Below, one piece after another: positions 6,505 through 63,822 of a stretch of 64,000 nucleotides of DNA. The position numbers and the translations under genes are program-made. Within the stretch, counting starts at the first letter, position 1. Every line of letters begins with the position of its first letter. Source of the stretch: a virus (taxonomy: Duplodnaviria; Caudoviricetes); IMG/VR virus record IMGVR_UViG_3300035208_008180; one strand, written 5' to 3'. The notes beneath the pieces are model-generated. The model saw only the letters and a program-made list of their open reading frames with translations. It made no database searches and was not told the DNA's origin.

Positions 6505-6885
6505 TTATGCGTAAATTGTTACTACGTTGCCTTTTTTCTCTTCTTCGTCCATAAAACCTTGAAGATAATCATCGTTCTGACTGATGTTGATGCACGCCAC
6601 ATCAAAGTCGGTGTTTTTTGAGAGTTCCTTCACCTTCTGGATTACTTCTTCTGTGTTGTCTTCGCCATCATTATCCTCAAAATATTCTTCCATTTCTCTC
6701 TTCATATAGGCAAGAACATCATCTTGTCCCTTGGCGTGCAGAAATGTTTCATAACCACCACGCTCAACAAGGTCGAGCAAAGTATCCGGCTTTTGCCCAC
6801 AATGTGGACATTTTCCCCTCTTTTTGACCGCAACAATGAAACTCATGCTGCTGCTATTAGACACAAAACCTATGCGAATTTTCAT
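6505..6885 (-). CDS. MKIRxGFVSNSSS-family phage protein
   Basis: MKIRIGFVSNSSSMSF; TAATG coupling with upstream paralog. Confidence 0.8.
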   Translation of the reverse strand: MKIRIGFVSNSSSMSFIVAVKKRGKCPHCGQKPDTLLDLVERGGYETFLHAKGQDDVLAYMKREMEEYFEDNDGEDNTEEVIQKVKELSKNTDFDVACINISQNDDYLQGFMDEEEKKGNVVTIYA

Positions 6886-7307
6886 TAGCAGGCGTACTCC
6901 CCACTGTGTAAAATTGCCTCTTTCCCAAATAATTCCAAACAAGCCTTGTTAGTGGCAATCATCCTGTCAATTGTCACTTGTCCCTTTCCACTGGGAGAAT
7001 TTCCAACAAATACTTGTTCTTCCGTATCACATTCACCAGTATAATTCTGAAATCCCAACCCATGCAACTCGCAAACCTCTTCTGCCCTGTTTGCCAAATC
7101 ATCTTCATCCTCTTTTACAAAGGTATGTTCTCCACACTCTGGGCAGTATAAAGCACTAGCACGATCAAATTCGTGCTCACATCCATTTACCATCTGTGGC
7201 TTTAATCCCAAAGCCTTTGCAACATCTGCTATGGAGATGAAACCAACGCCAAAAATGCAAAAAGAACTAGTTGAACTATTGGACACAAAACCTTGTCTGA
7301 TTTTCAT
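6885..7307 (-). CDS. MKIRxGFVSNSSS-family phage protein with Zn ribbon
   Basis: MKIRQGFVSNSSTSSF, CEH..CPECG. Confidence 0.8.
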   Translation of the reverse strand: MKIRQGFVSNSSTSSFCIFGVGFISIADVAKALGLKPQMVNGCEHEFDRASALYCPECGEHTFVKEDEDDLANRAEEVCELHGLGFQNYTGECDTEEQVFVGNSPSGKGQVTIDRMIATNKACLELFGKEAILHSGEYAC

Positions 7308-12726: not shown

Positions 12727-13212
12727 ATGAAATGTAAAGCCTGTGATAAATCAACAGACAATCCAAAATTTTGCTCTCTTTCGTGTGCGGCCACTTTCAA
12801 CAACGCCATCTCTCCCAAGCGATCAAAGAATAAAAAAATATGCAAAATGTGCGGTGGAAAAGTTAGTGGGCGTGGTGCATACTGTTCAAAAATATGTCAA
12901 AGCAACTTTAACTTCACAGAAAAAAGTAAAAATGGATATTATTATTCACCAGACCATAGTGGTAATACGAGATTTTTACGCAAATTTATTATAAGAAAAC
13001 ATGGAAACAACTGCATGATTTGCGGGCAATCTGGCAATGATTGGAACGGAAAACCAATTACACTCACTGTGGATCACATAAACGGACATGCCAATGATTG
13101 GTCTGTTCCAAACATAAGAATAATTTGCCCAAATTGCGATTCTCAACTACCAACATACAAGGGACGCAACAAAGGCAACAGCACCCGCAAATACACCATC
13201 ACGCAAAAGTAG
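12727..13212 (+). CDS. HNH homing endonuclease
   Basis: CMICG, VDHING, NIRIICPNCDSQ. Confidence 0.9.
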   Translation: MKCKACDKSTDNPKFCSLSCAATFNNAISPKRSKNKKICKMCGGKVSGRGAYCSKICQSNFNFTEKSKNGYYYSPDHSGNTRFLRKFIIRKHGNNCMICGQSGNDWNGKPITLTVDHINGHANDWSVPNIRIICPNCDSQLPTYKGRNKGNSTRKYTITQK

Positions 13213-13301
13213 GAGCGTAGGGAATCGAACCCTATATCTTTGGGTAATCAGCCCATAACGACGGGTATAAACCGCCTGCCTCACCATTTGGCCTCGCTCC
13301 C
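13210..13301 (-). tRNA. tRNA with TAT anticodon (nominally Ile) and long variable arm
   Basis: GGGAGCG/CGCTCCT-A; GGCGG-TTTATAC-CCGTC; V-arm TGGG..CCCA. Confidence 0.85.
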
Positions 13302-13315
13302 ATTCATTTCTCAAG

Positions 13316-13647
13316 TAGACCCGGTAGGACTTGAACCTACGACCAACAGATTATGCATACCACTATGACTTTCGCCACTCTTGCGATTTGTGGTCTGGAC
13401 TGTCTCTTCACTTTCGTGTTTGCCATTCAGTCTCTACACCTTCCACTTTGGTGGCTTGGCTCGGGATTGACATATTCTTTTCAGAACTTAGTTTTCCCCG
13501 AATTTGACAAATTCTACTATGTGCCTTCAAATGATATAATCATCTAAAAACTCATAGCAACCCAATGAAACAACTCCTGCAAAATGTATTTGTTTAGAGT
13601 TGCATCACAATCGAGTCTGCTGCTCTGACCAACTGAGCTACGGGTCC
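13316..13647 (-). tRNA. tRNA-Ile2/Met(CAT) split by a group I intron
   Basis: Exons GGACCCG..GCAGACT | CATAATCTGT..CGGGTCTA rebuild a cloverleaf. Confidence 0.9.
13356..13613 (-). mobile_element. ORF-less group I intron (258 nt) between U33 and C34
   Basis: P AAATTCGGGGAAA, Q AATCCCGAGC, R GTAGAGACTG, S AAGAGACAGTCC; P3 TTTGTCA/TGGCAAA; terminal G. Confidence 0.9.
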
Positions 13648-24232: not shown

Positions 24233-24262
24233 ATATTATATGAGTAACAATTAATGCATTAG

Positions 24263-24335
24263 TGGACCACCGGGAAGTTGAATCCCGTCTTCCGCCTTGC
24301 GGGGACAGCGTGCAAACCCGTTACACTTGTGGCCC
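24263..24335 (-). tRNA. tRNA-Ala(CGC)
   Basis: G3.U70; CTGTC-CCCGCAA-GGCGG. Confidence 0.8.
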
Positions 24336-24386
24336 ATGAGCCGCCGAAGTGTGCATGCCTTGCGGCAGAGGCCCGACGACTAACAG

Positions 24387-31982: not shown

Positions 31983-32071
31983 CTCCGAAGGGAGGATTCG
32001 AACCTCCATACCGATTGAACGGATTACACGATGTTAACAGCATCGCCGCCTGCCAATTGGCGTACCTCGGA
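31983..32071 (-). tRNA. tRNA-Asn(GTT) with long variable arm
   Basis: CGATG-CTGTTAA-CATCG; 21-nt variable region. Confidence 0.85.
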
Positions 32072-34142: not shown

Positions 34143-34145
34143 AAA

Positions 34146-34369
34146 ATTTGTCATCTCATAAGCGGAATTCTGTTTACAACCATCATTTATCTCACATTGC
34201 TGTGGTCTTTCGACTGCCTCTACCCGACTTCTCAGGGTCACTCACGCCCTCAGTCTGTTTGAGTTGCATCCTCGGTAGTTCGGACGAACAAAGTTCTCCT
34301 ACCTTAAAAGTGATGATGTTCCGACTTTCCTCTACGGATTGCTCCGCAGCGATGGTTCGGATGACAAAT
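34146..34369 (-). ncRNA. rnpB: minimal RNase P RNA (catalytic domain, S-domain nearly absent)
   Basis: GAGGAAAGTCGGAAC (CR-I) and AACAGAATTCCGCTTA (CR-V); P1-P7 and P15-P17 pair; L15 GGT; AGATAAA CR-IV. Confidence 0.88.
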
Positions 34370-38837: not shown

Positions 38838-38965
38838 TCCGACGACCCGGAATCGAACCGGCTATTACCCGAATGTTGCAACACCCAAAGTAACTTGAGC
38901 ATCAAGCCATTTCGCACCCAAAATCTACCCATATGTCTCGAATTTGGATACGTGCCTGTCATCGG
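38838..38965 (-). ncRNA. 8/4 tRNA-like RNA with expanded D-loop and long V-arm
   Basis: CCGATGAC/GTCGTCGG-A; CCGG-TTCGATT-CCGG; GCAC/GTGC. Confidence 0.6.
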
Positions 38966-38998: not shown

Positions 38999-39007
38999 CC
39001 AAAAAAA

Positions 39008-39251
39008 ATGGCAGGTTGGGCTTGAGTACCAACTACGAACTTTGAACACCAATTTTTCGTTATTTCCCCAACGTATCAAGTGCCGTGTCTTCGTTGGGTC
39101 GGTGCCAGGGTCTAATCGCTTTGTCCTTTCCCTTGCGGGGAAGGCACGAAGTAGTCACCTACACTCACCGGGCACTACCGGATAGCTCGTGTCACCCAGT
39201 AGGCTTTCGCCTACCCTCATTGCGAAGCGTGTCCATCCACGCCGCTGCCAT
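39008..39251 (-). ncRNA. 244-nt RNA with tRNA-like acceptor, D and T arms and a large central domain
   Basis: ATGGCAG/CTGCCAT; GCGT-GGATGGAC-ACGC; GTTGG-TACTCAAGC-CCAAC; GNRA hairpins; U-tract. Confidence 0.65.
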
Positions 39252-39276
39252 ACACCGAGGTGTATCTGACAATGCC

Positions 39277-39304
39277 ATTATACTTCAGTGCCTGGATTTG
39301 TAAA
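39277..39304 (-). promoter_or_regulatory. phage promoter TTTACAA-N9-CTGAAGTATAAT
   Basis: Repeated motif. Confidence 0.75.
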
Positions 39305-39535
39305 GTCCGAATCCAGCCATTTGCAACATTCGTCAAAACCCTCAATGTGGAGGGATTGCTCTTCCTCTGTCAGTTCAACCTCTGGCGGTATTTTGACGGG
39401 CATTGGTCCAAAAAACGTATCTCGGAAAATGCCGGAAGAATTGATTTCATAGACAGCCCAAGCACCACCATAACCATCAGAGGTTATCTTGAGAATCCAT
39501 TCTTTTAATTTCATGATTTAATGTCCTAAAAGAAG

Positions 39536-39709
39536 CGTGGGGGGTAGGCATCGAACCTACGTCTTTGGTTCCGCAAACCACTGTCTTTACGCATCAATAT
39601 CCTTGCATCTTCTTTCCGACCAGCTTTCGTCGGATGTCCAAAACAACAATATCAATGCGTCCTGCCGTAGTATGTACACTTAGGCGGCAGCCAACTAAAC
39701 GACTCCCAC
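39536..39709 (-). tRNA. tRNA-Arg(GCG) with ~100-nt structured D-loop insert
   Basis: GTGGGAG/CCCCCAC-G; TGGT-TTGCGGA-ACCA; GTAGG-TTCGATG-CCTAC. Confidence 0.75.
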
Positions 39710-39713
39710 ATAA

Positions 39714-40172
39714 TCAGTTGAAAGTTGCTGAGTCTACAAGTTTGGCAAGGACGCTCATTACGAATTGCTTGCTCATGCCCTCGGAGTCACAATGTGGTTT
39801 TCCATCTTTGAGATAAAAAACCACTTCTCCAAAGCCTGCCGAGACGGTGGCCCAATGTATCCCAAAGCTGCTTTCCAATTCAACTTTAGTTACATTCCAA
39901 TCAGGCTCTTTGCCAGTATTGATGGCATCCAACATGGAATCAAGAGCACTAGGGTCTTTTGCCTCAACTTTACCTTCCCGGCAAAGTCTGGCGATGTTTT
40001 GTCTTTCTTCTTCGCTAGCTTCTTGGGGCGACGGGCCAAAATATGTGTCTACCGTCTCTCTGAGAAATTGTTCGGTGGCTTCTGTGCCAATCAATTTCTC
40101 CAATTCACGCAATTCCTCAATAGGCTCTTCCTCAATAGGTTCATCACCCATGATCTTTCCTTCCATATTCAT
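39714..40172 (-). CDS. acidic hypothetical protein
   Basis: ORF track. Confidence 0.65.
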   Translation of the reverse strand: MNMEGKIMGDEPIEEEPIEELRELEKLIGTEATEQFLRETVDTYFGPSPQEASEEERQNIARLCREGKVEAKDPSALDSMLDAINTGKEPDWNVTKVELESSFGIHWATVSAGFGEVVFYLKDGKPHCDSEGMSKQFVMSVLAKLVDSATFN

Positions 40173-40416
40173 TTAGTGTTCTGCGTCCCCGTGCTCGTTC
40201 TTCATAGTGGTCAAAACACATAGCCAGTGGTTGTTTGTCTTTATTCCACCACAACAACACATCAGCAGCTTTGCCGCAGATAACGGGTTCAGATTTGGGT
40301 CCATTAGAAAAATCAACGACAAACATACAGACATGTTCCTCTTTTGGAGGGACTGAAGTAACCCAATCTGGGTCTCCCGGCACCCGTTTGCGGTATCTGC
40401 GTTGTTTCATACAGGC

Positions 40417-40444
40417 ATTATACTTCAGAAAAGCCCGTTGTAAA
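40417..40444 (-). promoter_or_regulatory. phage promoter TTTACAA-N9-CTGAAGTATAAT
   Basis: Repeated motif. Confidence 0.75.
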
Positions 40445-40731
40445 CCCGTTAAATCTATGCCCCTACCCCCTAAATACAGTATGGCAGAAGTTAAACCTAT
40501 TTTTGGCAGTGAAATCAAATACAGCAATGCCAATAACCAATTATCAAGATTACAGAATCTATTAAATCAAACAGTCAATATCACTCCTGTTTTGCCTCCA
40601 GTGAGCGGCATTATGGCATTAACAATAATTGAAAAATCAAACAATAAACTATCCCAATTACAAAGTCAATTAGATCACATACATAATATTGCCCAAAATG
40701 GGGCAACCAATGTCTGAATAAGTGGAGAAAC

Positions 40732-61167: not shown

Positions 61168-61893
61168 TTATAGTGGTTTTGGTGTAAGCAAATTGCCCAT
61201 GTCATCAAAATCTACATAGCCCATATTATGACCCCACGACGGCATATGTCCATCCAAACACATAAAAGTAGTACCCTTATACTCTTGTACCCAATTGATG
61301 TGATGATGTCCAAAAAGCCAAAGCCTTGGTCGGTGCCGCTCTAAACAGGATTGCAAAATCCTATTGGTAACACTAGGTCGGAAGTCCTGCAAGAAACGAT
61401 CCTTGCCAGTATGGGCCAATAAATAGATTATCTCTTCTGCACAATCATGTGTCAAGACTATTTCTGGCTTTGCTTTCTCATAAGCCAACACACATTCATG
61501 CCCCTGTGTCCAACTCAATTCTTCATCTGCCCACCAACTAATGCCGGGAATACGTTCTGCTCGATCAATACTGCGGGCTCCACGAATATAGAAGAACTCA
61601 AAATTCCCCTCTTTGAGCGGAAAAGAATGAGTGCCATAATCGCCAAGAGCGTGTTGAACACGATGGTCATAATCATCATGATTGCCAAGAACCACAACAT
61701 GATGGGCTTTATCAATGTTGGCTACTTGTTGGTGAAAATCTGGCTGCCCGCTCCAAGCAAATCCAAAATCACCAAGCTGCACTGAGTATTCGGCAGCACC
61801 CATTAAGTTAAAATAACTACGACTACCACCTCTATAATTGAGATAGCCGTGTATGTCGCCAATAATACGAATATAAGGTTGCGGTTTGCTCAT
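61168..61893 (-). CDS. metallophosphoesterase
   Basis: GDIHG, LGDFG, GNHD, THD, FGHHH. Confidence 0.88.
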   Translation of the reverse strand: MSKPQPYIRIIGDIHGYLNYRGGSRSYFNLMGAAEYSVQLGDFGFAWSGQPDFHQQVANIDKAHHVVVLGNHDDYDHRVQHALGDYGTHSFPLKEGNFEFFYIRGARSIDRAERIPGISWWADEELSWTQGHECVLAYEKAKPEIVLTHDCAEEIIYLLAHTGKDRFLQDFRPSVTNRILQSCLERHRPRLWLFGHHHINWVQEYKGTTFMCLDGHMPSWGHNMGYVDFDDMGNLLTPKPL

Positions 61894-62249
61894 TTTTTTA
61901 TCGGTGATTTTTCCATCGTAAAGAGAATAACCTCTTCGCCGGTTATTGTGCTAATATCATGGTGCATGCTCAAAACCCTGACGCCAGTTATTTCTGCAAG
62001 CAATGCTTCCAAAAATGGCCGAGCCGTTTCAAGCAAATGAACCCGCACTTGTTTGAGTAAAATAACTCCTTTTTCTTTCTGCTTTTCTACCAAATGTTTT
62101 TCAGAAGCAGTAAGCACCCCTGTAAGCCGGATTACAAAAAAATCACCCAATAAATGAGTGTGAATTTCTTTTGGTCCCCGTCCCATGAATTCCTGTTCAA
62201 ATCGGGTAATTCCTCCACAAACAGCAGCTTCAATTTCGCCTTGAGTCAC
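61890..62249 (-). CDS. DUF2294 (MpsC-like) protein
   Basis: MGRGP..GVLT.SE..GV.V.SMHHDIST.TGEEVILF. Confidence 0.85.
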   Translation of the reverse strand: MTQGEIEAAVCGGITRFEQEFMGRGPKEIHTHLLGDFFVIRLTGVLTASEKHLVEKQKEKGVILLKQVRVHLLETARPFLEALLAEITGVRVLSMHHDISTITGEEVILFTMEKSPIKK

Positions 62250-62415: not shown

Positions 62416-63822
62416 CTAATCCTCCGAGGGGCTGTTATCGCCACACATTTTCACAATCTTCGGATTAAAGGTTGCAACAATTTCAACCAAATCCGATTGA
62501 GCCGCCATAACTGTATCAATATCTTTATAGACCCCAGGGCTTTCGTCTGCCGTGGCGTCCAAGACAATGACACCTTGCCGATCCAAGTTACCTTGGACAG
62601 CTTTCCAAACATATTTTTCTTTGGCTTTTTTACGAGACATCAATCGCCCCGCCCCGTGAGAAGCAGAACAAAGACTCGCCGGATTACCTTTGCCCACCAC
62701 AATATAAGCAGGCGTGCCCATCGAACCAGGAATTACACCCAGCATACGATGGCTTGCAGGGGTTGCTCCCTTACGATGCACCACTACCTCGCCTTGATTC
62801 GGATCATGCGTTTCAAGGAAAGCGAAATTGTGATGATTCTCTACATTAAATAAAACTTTGGCTCCCAAATTCTGAGCCATAGCCTTGTGAATCAATTGAT
62901 GATTGGCTTGAGCGAATCGACCCATCAATTGCATTGCGAGCCAATATTCCTGCCCATCATTGGATGCCAAATCCAACCATGCCAGATTTTTCAAATCGTC
63001 ATATTTCTTCGGCAACTTGGATTGAGCAACCCCGTGATACATTTGGCATACTGCTGCCCCCGGTCCCCGAGAACCTGAATGAGTCATAATTGCCACATAC
63101 TCACCAGGGAGCAGCCCAGCAATATCTGCAAGCGATGGCGAATTTTGTATTTGCAGAATGCCGACATCAATAAAATGATTTCCGCTACCCGAAGTTCCTA
63201 GCTGCTTCCAGGCTTTGTCTTTTTGCTGTTTGGTGACTCTGGTAATTCCCCAATCCTCATCCATAACCGGATGATTTTTGGGCTGATCGAAGACCGCATT
63301 TCCGCCGTCGCCAATACCAAAACGAGTGCTCTTGGCAATCGCTTCCCTGTACAAATTAAATTTCTTTTCCAAGGAATTGACTGGCATATCTAGGATTGAC
63401 AAGCTCATACGGCAAGCAATATCGACGCCGACCGCATTCGGACATACGGCTCCTTGCAAAGCCAAAACCCCACCAATGGGCAGTCCGTAACCAACATGAC
63501 AATCTGGCATAACGGCGGCAGTAACCGCCATCGGCAATGAACAAGCTTGCTGCATTTGTCCGTCACAACCCTCTTCCAACGACCCCCATACCTTGTAGGG
63601 GATAGCAGCAGATCGAACAAACTGTTGCTCTTGAATTAGAAGATTGGCTAAATCTCCGAAGTGTTTATCTCCGACATATTCCTGAGGGTTGGTGAAGAAA
63701 GTCTTCATGATAGCCTTGATATTGCGATCATCGCCGCCCTCTCGGGCTACACGAATAGCATCGACCGCAAGACGGGCACAATCCTCAGGACATCCAAGTT
63801 TAACAAGCTGTTTGCCGTTCAT
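62416..63822 (-). CDS. rtcB: RtcB-family RNA ligase
   Basis: MPDCHVGYGLPIGG, GVDIAC, GSGNHF, HSGSRG, HHN, HRKGAT, SHGAGR, DESP.VYK. Confidence 0.95.
   Translation of the reverse strand: MNGKQLVKLGCPEDCARLAVDAIRVAREGGDDRNIKAIMKTFFTNPQEYVGDKHFGDLANLLIQEQQFVRSAAIPYKVWGSLEEGCDGQMQQACSLPMAVTAAVMPDCHVGYGLPIGGVLALQGAVCPNAVGVDIACRMSLSILDMPVNSLEKKFNLYREAIAKSTRFGIGDGGNAVFDQPKNHPVMDEDWGITRVTKQQKDKAWKQLGTSGSGNHFIDVGILQIQNSPSLADIAGLLPGEYVAIMTHSGSRGPGAAVCQMYHGVAQSKLPKKYDDLKNLAWLDLASNDGQEYWLAMQLMGRFAQANHQLIHKAMAQNLGAKVLFNVENHHNFAFLETHDPNQGEVVVHRKGATPASHRMLGVIPGSMGTPAYIVVGKGNPASLCSASHGAGRLMSRKKAKEKYVWKAVQGNLDRQGVIVLDATADESPGVYKDIDTVMAAQSDLVEIVATFNPKIVKMCGDNSPSED

Follow-up and report, generated by a model that had tools for sequence, protein, structure and literature searches.

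The DNA considered here is a window of 64,000 nucleotides (nt) from the virus record IMGVR_UViG_3300035208_008180, and its subject is a transfer RNA (tRNA) gene, tRNA-Arg(GCG), whose D-loop is interrupted between G19 and A20 by a pair of hairpins. Contig C200 (340 kb, 40% GC), of which the window makes up the first 64 kb, lies in a 6.2-Mb bin that is otherwise ~70% GC. On this contig are phage genes of the PHROG type, a tail-fibre domain (Mtd_N), genes of NAD and nucleotide metabolism and an RtcB gene, together with 65 tRNA genes that ARAGORN places on a single strand. Because of the GC contrast with the bin, the phage genes and the 65 tRNAs, the contig is identified as a mis-binned huge phage, of a lineage with 40% GC and T4-like features.

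The interrupted unit, as read from the sequence, spans 174 nt on the minus strand (39536-39709), including the discriminator G at 39536. Its 5' exon (39691-39709) comprises the 5' strand of the acceptor stem (39709-39703), U8 and C9, the D-stem strand GUUU (39700-39697) and the D-loop from A14 to G19, AGUUGG (39696-39691). After the insert, the 3' exon (39536-39588) resumes with A20 and A21 (39588-39587), the D-stem strand AGAC (39586-39583) and A26, and continues through the anticodon arm (39581-39565) with its GCG anticodon (39574-39572), a variable loop AGAC, the T-arm (39560-39544) and the acceptor 3' strand CCCCCAC (39543-39537) to the discriminator. The acceptor stem, GTGGGAG/CCCCCAC, forms six of seven pairs, with an A6.C67 mismatch; the anticodon arm, GUGGU-UUGCGGA-ACCAA, forms four of five, with a G27.A43 mismatch, and presents a 7-nt loop with U33; and the T-arm, GUAGG-UUCGAUG-CCUAC, has a UUCGA T-loop. 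The D-stem pairs as GUUU/AGAC, and U8, A14, G18G19 and A21 are all kept, split by the insert that separates AGUUGG from AA. A C follows the discriminator, an N73-C74 ending shared with the phage's other tRNAs. Joined, the exons give a canonical 72-nt tRNA with the universal nucleotides. The A directly 3' of the insert is A20 because the joined D-loop reads AGUUGG-AA, and GG-A is also read in 20 of the 20 uninterrupted phage tRNA-Arg(GCG) genes listed. The split tRNA has A20, C35 and G36, in keeping with the bacterial arginine identity nucleotides (A20, C35, G/U36).

An initial annotation of this DNA had proposed a tRNA-Arg(GCG) with four foldable arms, in which the GG of the D-loop is followed at once by about 100 nt of RNA in two hairpins. 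All arms are present, and folding bears out the hairpins. The insert was placed correctly at that time and given as 103 nt (39588-39690); its actual length is 102 nt, from 39690 to 39589 on the minus strand.

The intact locus is called neither by ARAGORN nor by Rfam at gathering score, the Rfam tRNA model RF00005 reaching 16.1 bits against a gathering score of 29 and covering model positions 10-63, the 3' part only. Targeted in silico deletion of the insert made ARAGORN call tRNA-Arg(gcg) for 107 of 289 boundary pairs. In an unbiased scan, every segment of 20-200 nt upstream of every uncalled T-arm on the whole contig was deleted before ARAGORN was run; this gave 117 positive boundary pairs at the locus, with deletions of 97-109 nt, and none among 212,856 variants of the opposite strand. 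The scan also yields bridging artefacts between neighbouring tRNAs, and a cluster of positives near 334.8 kb, whose "5' half" overlaps a promoter, was set aside. As a control for the 5' half, the same contig strand was cut into 850 real pieces of 400 nt. Three of them hold a 7-mer and a 4-mer that pair with this acceptor and D-stem, and a single one, the real locus, has U8, A14 and G18G19 in addition. The unit recurs with 100% identity in Logan assembly SRR18595299 and JGI metagenome 3300037067, making three independent assemblies in all, and is therefore not an assembly artefact.

Among the 65 called tRNAs, those for arginine have the anticodons CCG, CCT, TCG and TCT only, so that a reader of CGU and CGC is absent; CGT and CGC together make up 30% of the arginine codons in the phage's long open reading frames (ORFs). 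Because the phage is otherwise without such a reader, the split gene fits a real gap. It matches the general use of G34 seen in the phage's other four-codon boxes, and fills the sole gap in arginine decoding. The locus is, in short, a genuine phage tRNA-Arg(GCG) gene with an interrupted D-loop. Standard tRNA finders miss genes of this kind, and the decoding capacity of phages is under-counted as a result.

Structure, nature and history of the insert

The first hairpin, 29 nt (39662-39690), begins flush with G19 and consists of CUGCCG..CGGCAG and an inner 4-bp AGUG/UACU helix. A single G at 39661 links it to the second, 72 nt (39589-39660), which ends flush with A20. Hairpin 2 has a basal stem of 13 bp, ACGCAUUGAUAUU/GAUAUUGAUGCGU, with three G.U pairs, above which come helices of 4 bp and 2 bp, an internal loop GGACA/AAGAA, and a tip formed by the 6-bp helix UCCGAC/GUCGGA with the loop GAAAGCUG. 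The minimum free energy (MFE) of the insert, -41.4 kcal/mol, has a z score of -5.47, and equal stability was reached in none of 200 shuffles. The antisense strand folds at -29.9 kcal/mol, so that the tRNA sense is better by 11.5 kcal/mol, owing to about six G.U pairs; sense-only folding of this kind suggests that selection has acted on the RNA and that the insert is no mere DNA palindrome. When the cloverleaf pairs are enforced on the whole unit both hairpins still form, at -60.5 kcal/mol versus an unconstrained MFE of -65.0 kcal/mol.

By BLAST the insert is single-copy in the 6.2-Mb bin and finds nothing other than itself in ~2.5 Mb of fetched DNA. A mobile repeat, miniature inverted-repeat transposable element or insertion sequence is ruled out: there is one copy, with no terminal inverted repeats, target duplication or transposon signature. 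Neither the apical hairpin nor the 5' exon, each scanned against IMG/VR, gave a match. A permissive cmscan of 39400-39850 assigned the insert to no Rfam family at E <= 10, its sole returns being the partial match to tRNA and a single snoRNA match due to chance. No group II intron or known self-cleaving ribozyme is matched by Rfam at the locus, nor is a group I core (RF00028) found at E <= 10 in the same interval, for which 102 nt would also be far too small. The earlier impression that the insert holds no group I or II core therefore stands, and the library does detect a real group I intron elsewhere.

The gene lies between two ORFs of no known family on the same strand. Upstream is P0001 (39714-40172, 152 aa), whose stop codon is 4 nt before the tRNA 5' end, and downstream is P0002 (39278-39514, 78 aa), 21 nt past the discriminator. 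No promoter was found between P0001 and the unit, and the split tRNA gene sits inside the P0001-P0002 transcription unit. In the two closest relatives (L005 and L006), which are collinear with the window from 40317 to 38052 at 79-92% nucleotide identity, a block of 200 nt (39516-39716, minus strand) containing the whole unit and a 21-nt AGGA-bearing spacer is replaced by ~10 nt, with 2 nt separating one flanking ORF from the other. The indel boundaries match the tRNA ends. Because the relatives are without the entire block, gene and insert were gained or lost in one piece. The initial annotation had named homologs without the insert as grounds for refutation; the data show something else, the closest relative being without the whole gene, an absence that neither supports nor refutes an intron. 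Searches with 39000-40500 found no similar phage sequence in GenBank, and scans of IMG/VR with the neighbouring proteins found no relatives.

Recurrence and comparison with known systems

A pattern scan of IMG/VR with the 3' half of tRNA-Arg(GCG) recovered a second D-loop-split tRNA-Arg(GCG), at 6851-6993 of an unrelated 137-kb phage contig (L102; IMGVR_UViG_3300036715_002050) whose record is 85% complete and which has 29 tRNAs in 9 kb. Its 5' side reads TCGCGUG-UG-GUGU-AAAAAGUGG, then 67 nt of insert, then AA-GCAC-A; its 3' side reads CUAGC-UUGCGGA-GCUAG-AGGAU-GUAGG-UUCGAAU-CCUGC-CACGCGG. Like the window gene, it goes uncalled when intact, and deletion rescues it for 129 of 169 boundary pairs. 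The two genes share their tRNA identity, their insertion point (after G18G19 and before AA and the 3' strand of the D-stem) and their setting in large-phage DNA, the L102 copy lying within a tRNA array. They differ in the exons, which are 68% identical and in L102 have different, fully paired stems, and in the insert, which in L102 forms a single hairpin with an 8-nt tail, is only weakly structured (z = -1.6) and has a length of 67 nt, against 102 nt in the window; no sequence similarity was found between the two inserts. Directly 5' of the L102 split gene, at 6778-6849, is another uncalled tRNA-like gene, with an acceptor GCTCTAG/CTAGAGC and an anticodon loop CTGTCTA.

These are the only two clean D-loop splits among ~250 genuine tRNA-Arg(GCG) genes sampled from viral, metagenome and genome collections; the metagenome scan returned 112 normal genes and the genome-collection scan 90, with no further clean case. 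That such splits seem confined to this tRNA is a bias of the search, which probed Arg(GCG) only. The GCG anticodon, at first thought uncommon in bacteria, proved common in metagenome-assembled genomes of Patescibacteria and Chloroflexota, and 140 uninterrupted genes were collected from phage and metagenome contigs. A GTAGG T-stem was considered as a mark of interrupted genes and ruled out, normal Arg(GCG) genes sharing it. In three metagenome contigs (L146, L183 and L259, minus strand), a normal tRNA-Arg(GCG) is followed after ~15 nt by a pair of CYCCGAC..GTCGGRG hairpins, and then by a second Arg(GCG) of which only the 3' two-thirds are present. These truncated duplicates have a different architecture and are not counted as D-loop splits; in them a strand G+CUCCGA, which covaries between contigs, can pair locally or with the distal acceptor strand.

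The accepted view is that the only interruptions of bacterial-type tRNA genes are self-splicing group I introns placed in the anticodon loop; no report was found of an insert in the D-loop for bacteria or their viruses. The group I introns of bacterial, cyanobacterial and phage tRNA genes have a catalytic core and are ~200 nt or more. They resemble the present case in interrupting a bacterial-type tRNA, whereas the window insert is 102 nt long, sits in the D-loop and gives no RF00028 match. T4 phage offers a different parallel in its species 1 and 2 RNAs (rnaC and rnaD), which, like the window unit, are oversized stable RNAs, encoded in a T4-type tRNA cluster. In species 1 RNA a genuine T-arm is combined with acceptor-like ends and, in the 5'/D region, a long hairpin; unlike the window unit, this RNA has no canonical D-stem and D-loop halves and no identity-bearing anticodon loop, and it is not "spliceable" in silico. 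No sequence similarity of the window unit to the T4 stable RNAs was found, and rnaC and rnaD have no known function.

The closest description in the literature is that of the Lak megaphages, whose tRNA genes contain "enigmatic" short introns that are neither group I nor group II and are non-self-splicing (Devoto et al. 2019, PMC6784885). These short non-ribozyme inserts of megaphage tRNAs, described in a single report, have no known splicing route (PMC6784885). Both the Lak introns and the window insert are short, non-ribozyme sequences in a tRNA gene of a huge phage, and the window unit, identical in three assemblies, is invariant between samples, as would be expected of a Lak-type intron. 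Because they were predicted with tRNAscan in its eukaryote mode, the Lak introns lie in the anticodon loop (PMC6784885). The Lak paper makes no mention of the D-loop (PMC6784885), which is where the window insert lies. The window phage is also of a different lineage from Lak, with 40% GC and T4-like features, and the inserts are compared here by description and not by sequence.

Non-canonical tRNA introns of archaea and of Cyanidioschyzon, which occur in the D-arm among other places, are cut by EndA at a bulge-helix-bulge and joined by RtcB (PMC4090602; for A. pernix, PMC3241643). Like the archaeal introns, the window insert interrupts an otherwise canonical tRNA away from the anticodon, and an RtcB is encoded nearby; unlike them, it shows no bulge-helix-bulge above chance, and the assembly has no EndA homolog. 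The gene is also surrounded by signals of bacterial type: sigma-70-like promoters, Shine-Dalgarno sequences and a type-A ribonuclease P (RNase P) RNA. The insert, 102 nt long and made of two autonomous hairpins, exceeds most archaeal-type tRNA introns in size. A last parallel is found in the intervening sequences of bacterial 23S ribosomal RNA (rRNA), hairpins that RNase III excises to leave an rRNA that is fragmented yet functional (PMC4990558). In Salmonella, Coxiella and other bacteria these are, like the window insert, long hairpins without a ribozyme in a loop of a stable RNA; unlike it, they reside in rRNA and replace helix tips, and their excision involves no re-ligation. We know of no example of such an intervening sequence in a tRNA.

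Processing and possible fate of the insert

Two components of RNA metabolism encoded in the window bear on how the unit might be processed, both on the minus strand. The first is the RtcB RNA ligase, of 468 aa (62416-63822; PF01139, E = 9.5e-89). After it, at 61168-62249, come a protein with an MpsC domain (PF10057, E = 3.4e-33) and a phosphoesterase of the calcineurin-like kind, a neighbourhood with a possible role in RNA end-processing. Rnl2-type ligases and an archease occur only on other contigs of the bin (the Rnl2-type ligases on low-GC contigs), and their link to the phage is unproven. The second is an RNase P RNA of type A with the P4 core motifs (34143-34368; RF00010, 58.6 bits, E = 1.6e-17), which standard annotation missed because its score is below the RF00010 gathering score. 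The match spans model positions 1-367, with the specificity domain, ~145 central model positions, reduced to ~42 nt. This domain reads the elbow formed by the T-loop and D-loop, and an insert after G19 lies on that elbow, which would fit, we infer, an RNase P RNA without the elbow-reading domain.

The reading preferred here, with a probability of roughly 0.4, is that the gene yields a working tRNA from which the insert is removed by protein enzymes. The transcript would fold as a cloverleaf with the insert projecting from the elbow, and RNase P and 3' enzymes would trim its ends; the domain that would call for a free elbow is missing from the phage's RNase P RNA. One or more protein nucleases recognising the hairpins or their junctions with the D-loop would then cut the insert out, and an RNA ligase, for which the phage RtcB is the obvious candidate, would rejoin the halves to give the sole phage tRNA reading CGU and CGC. 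Passage of a tRNA with a 102-nt elbow domain through the ribosome is unlikely, in our judgement from known contacts between the two; a decoding role therefore means that the insert must be removed, and a retained insert means a non-decoding role. The broader proposal, that large bacterial phages excise short structured tRNA inserts at non-canonical positions by a protein-dependent route and rejoin the halves, is put forward only tentatively. If true, it would bring archaeal- or eukaryote-style tRNA splicing into the bacterial world, with the D-loop insert as its first example outside the anticodon loop, and parts of the pathway would be phage-encoded, namely an elbow-independent RNase P RNA, a nuclease, and RtcB or another ligase. 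The split tRNA provides a sharp experimental handle, since it recurs in a second phage, is accompanied by RtcB and a reduced RNase P RNA, and is the sole candidate for reading CGU and CGC.

Several results weigh against removal by protein enzymes. A bulge-helix-bulge, or its relaxed form (hBH/HBh'), at the junctions, which the initial annotation had suggested looking for, did not rise above chance: the search gave 11 candidate geometries versus 7.8 in shuffles, and the best of them has three G.U pairs in its 4-bp central helix. No EndA-family endonuclease (PF01974) was found in the whole 6.2-Mb bin, where archaeal controls were positive; a divergent EndA-type enzyme, or one supplied by the host, could still be at work. 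The locus matches no known ribozyme or intron family in Rfam, and covariation among homologs gives no support, since the three copies are all identical and the closest relative is without the gene. Among the 140 fetched uninterrupted tRNA-Arg(GCG) genes there is no close ortholog, the best exon identity being at most 76% against a background median of 74%. The two stem mismatches, A6.C67 and G27.A43, set the exons apart from most of the phage's tRNAs, ~49 of 65 of which have none. The 85% complete L102 record yielded no RtcB and no RNase P RNA, and the two are therefore not obligatory partners of such a gene. Finally, the insertion point is a length-variable, solvent-exposed part of the D-loop, a position that equally predicts a tolerated expansion that is retained.

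This last point leads to a possible alternative, one that we hold to be somewhat less likely: that the insert is kept and the 174-nt RNA is a stable, non-decoding RNA built on a tRNA scaffold, in which RNase P and CCA processing, as well as stability, would come from the tRNA body while the elbow hairpins would serve as a protein handle, decoy or regulator. Insertion exactly in the outward-facing beta region after G19, with L102 interrupted at the same place, would suit such an RNA, as would the strong stability of the structure and its restriction to the sense strand. The same contig holds tRNA-like genes with a 58-nt module in the D region whose D-arms are not restored by deletion, neighbouring oversized tRNA-like RNAs carry their own promoters, T4 rnaC has a hairpin in the 5'/D region besides its T-arm and acceptor-like ends, and the processing of such RNAs would need an enzyme of the kind seen here, an RNase P RNA lacking an elbow-reading domain. 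The split unit, however, has no promoter of its own, and it keeps every feature of decoding and arginine identity (the 7-nt anticodon loop, U33 and A20) and fills the arginine gap, all of which would be needless in a pure scaffold; nor is its insert conserved with that of L102, so that there is no sign of a shared functional domain.

It is unlikely that the gene is simply dead, disrupted in place or acquired in disrupted form, and persisting as a recent and harmless passenger while the host supplies a CGY-reading tRNA. The two stem mismatches speak for such a gene, splicing signals of known kinds were not found, split D-loops are rare (two in ~250), and the absence of the 200-nt unit from the closest relative, with the flanking genes 2 nt apart, indicates recent gain or dispensability. 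Disruption in situ at this locus is contradicted by the arrival of the insert with the exons as one block. Moreover, a random insertion is not expected to be so ordered (z = -5.5), with strand-specific G.U pairs, or to fall exactly between G19 and A20 with hairpins flush with both junctions. The insert has no second copy, terminal repeats or transposon signature, the unit is identical in three samples, and the same topology is found in an unrelated phage with intact stems.

Improbable, and partly overlapping with protein-dependent removal in that it too is a removal route, is excision by RNase III without re-ligation, as in 23S rRNA intervening sequences. The outcome would be a two-piece tRNA held together by its acceptor and D stems, or a site separating the P0001 and P0002 messages. 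Hairpin 2 does offer a near-continuous duplex of ~25 bp (13 + 4 + 2 + 6 bp), the unit lies between two ORFs of one transcript without a promoter of its own, and there is a precedent in the fragmented yet functional 23S rRNA (PMC4990558). Against this, cleavage would leave helix stubs, with hairpin 1 still on the 5' fragment; the resulting ends (5'-phosphate, 3'-OH) are not RtcB substrates, and the Rnl2-type ligases are confined to other, low-GC contigs of unproven connection to the phage. We also know of no natural two-piece tRNA in bacteria. That a tRNA 3' fragment lies by chance downstream of an unrelated structured RNA is very improbable indeed, for although Rfam aligns only positions 10-63, at 16.1 bits, and the scan can bridge neighbouring genes, the strict 5'-half control is passed by one piece in 850, the real locus, the opposite strand gives nothing, and the indel boundaries are those of the tRNA.

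Other tRNA-like RNAs of the phage and its relatives

Besides the interrupted tRNA-Arg(GCG), the contig and its relatives encode a variety of unusual tRNA-like RNAs. Beyond the window, at 333600-334500 of C200 (L263, minus strand), is a cluster of tRNA-like genes with a conserved module, GTTCAGTTTCCCAAACTTGGAC, 8 nt, and GTCCCACACCTGAGAGACATACAAACAA. In its 58-nt form the module occupies the D region of Phe(GAA), Asn(GTT) and an Arg(CCT)-like gene at 333.6-334.1 kb, and its hairpin shows one compensatory change, GGAC/GTCC to GGAT/ATCC. Because their D-arms stay poor after in silico deletion, these genes look more like scaffold RNAs than split tRNAs. Searches of IMG/VR and Rfam with the 58-nt module gave one random match and no family. 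Longer variants of 91 and 101 nt lie between other tRNA pieces of the cluster. In one arrangement the T-arm and acceptor 3' strand come first, then CCAAAA, and after it the acceptor 5' strand, D-arm and anticodon arm, an order that looks circularly permuted.

Within the window, close to the split gene, a tRNA-like RNA of 128 nt (38838-38965, minus strand) has its own TTTACA-16-TATAAT promoter, an acceptor CCGATGA/TCGTCGG, a T-arm and a long hairpin at the D position. The close relative L005 lacks this RNA and has, ~40 nt upstream, a 182-nt block of unrelated sequence (L005:1092-1274) instead; small RNA genes in this region turn over as cassettes. A compact group I intron of ~170 nt (13382-13551, minus strand; RF00028, 63.9 bits) is flanked by tRNA-like ends, and the adjoining tRNA-Ile(TAT) (13210-13301) has a long extra arm. 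A 90-nt tRNA-Asn(GTT) at 31983-32071 (minus strand) has a long variable arm, which is unusual for Asn. GCAA tetraloops and an end resembling a T-arm (CGGGA-TTCAACT-TCCCG) mark a structured RNA just downstream of tRNA-Gly(CCC), at 24250-24380 (minus strand), which appeared in the deletion scan as a bridging artefact.

Outside the window, at 73866-73995 of C200 (minus strand), an uncalled tRNA-like gene has an acceptor GCAACTA/TGGTTGC, a T-arm ATTGG-TTCGATT-CCAGT and ~50 extra nt between the D-arm and the T-arm; the identity that ARAGORN assigns to it shifts between Cys, Leu, SeC and Arg with the placement of the deletion. Lastly, a "tRNA-Arg(TCG)" of 95 nt in more distant relatives (L007:9504-9598, and also L009 and L010) has 28 nt between its anticodon-stem strands; it reads CTTCG-GGCTAGACAGCC-CA-CGAAG-TTAA, ~21 extra nt that extend the anticodon stem to a long hairpin.

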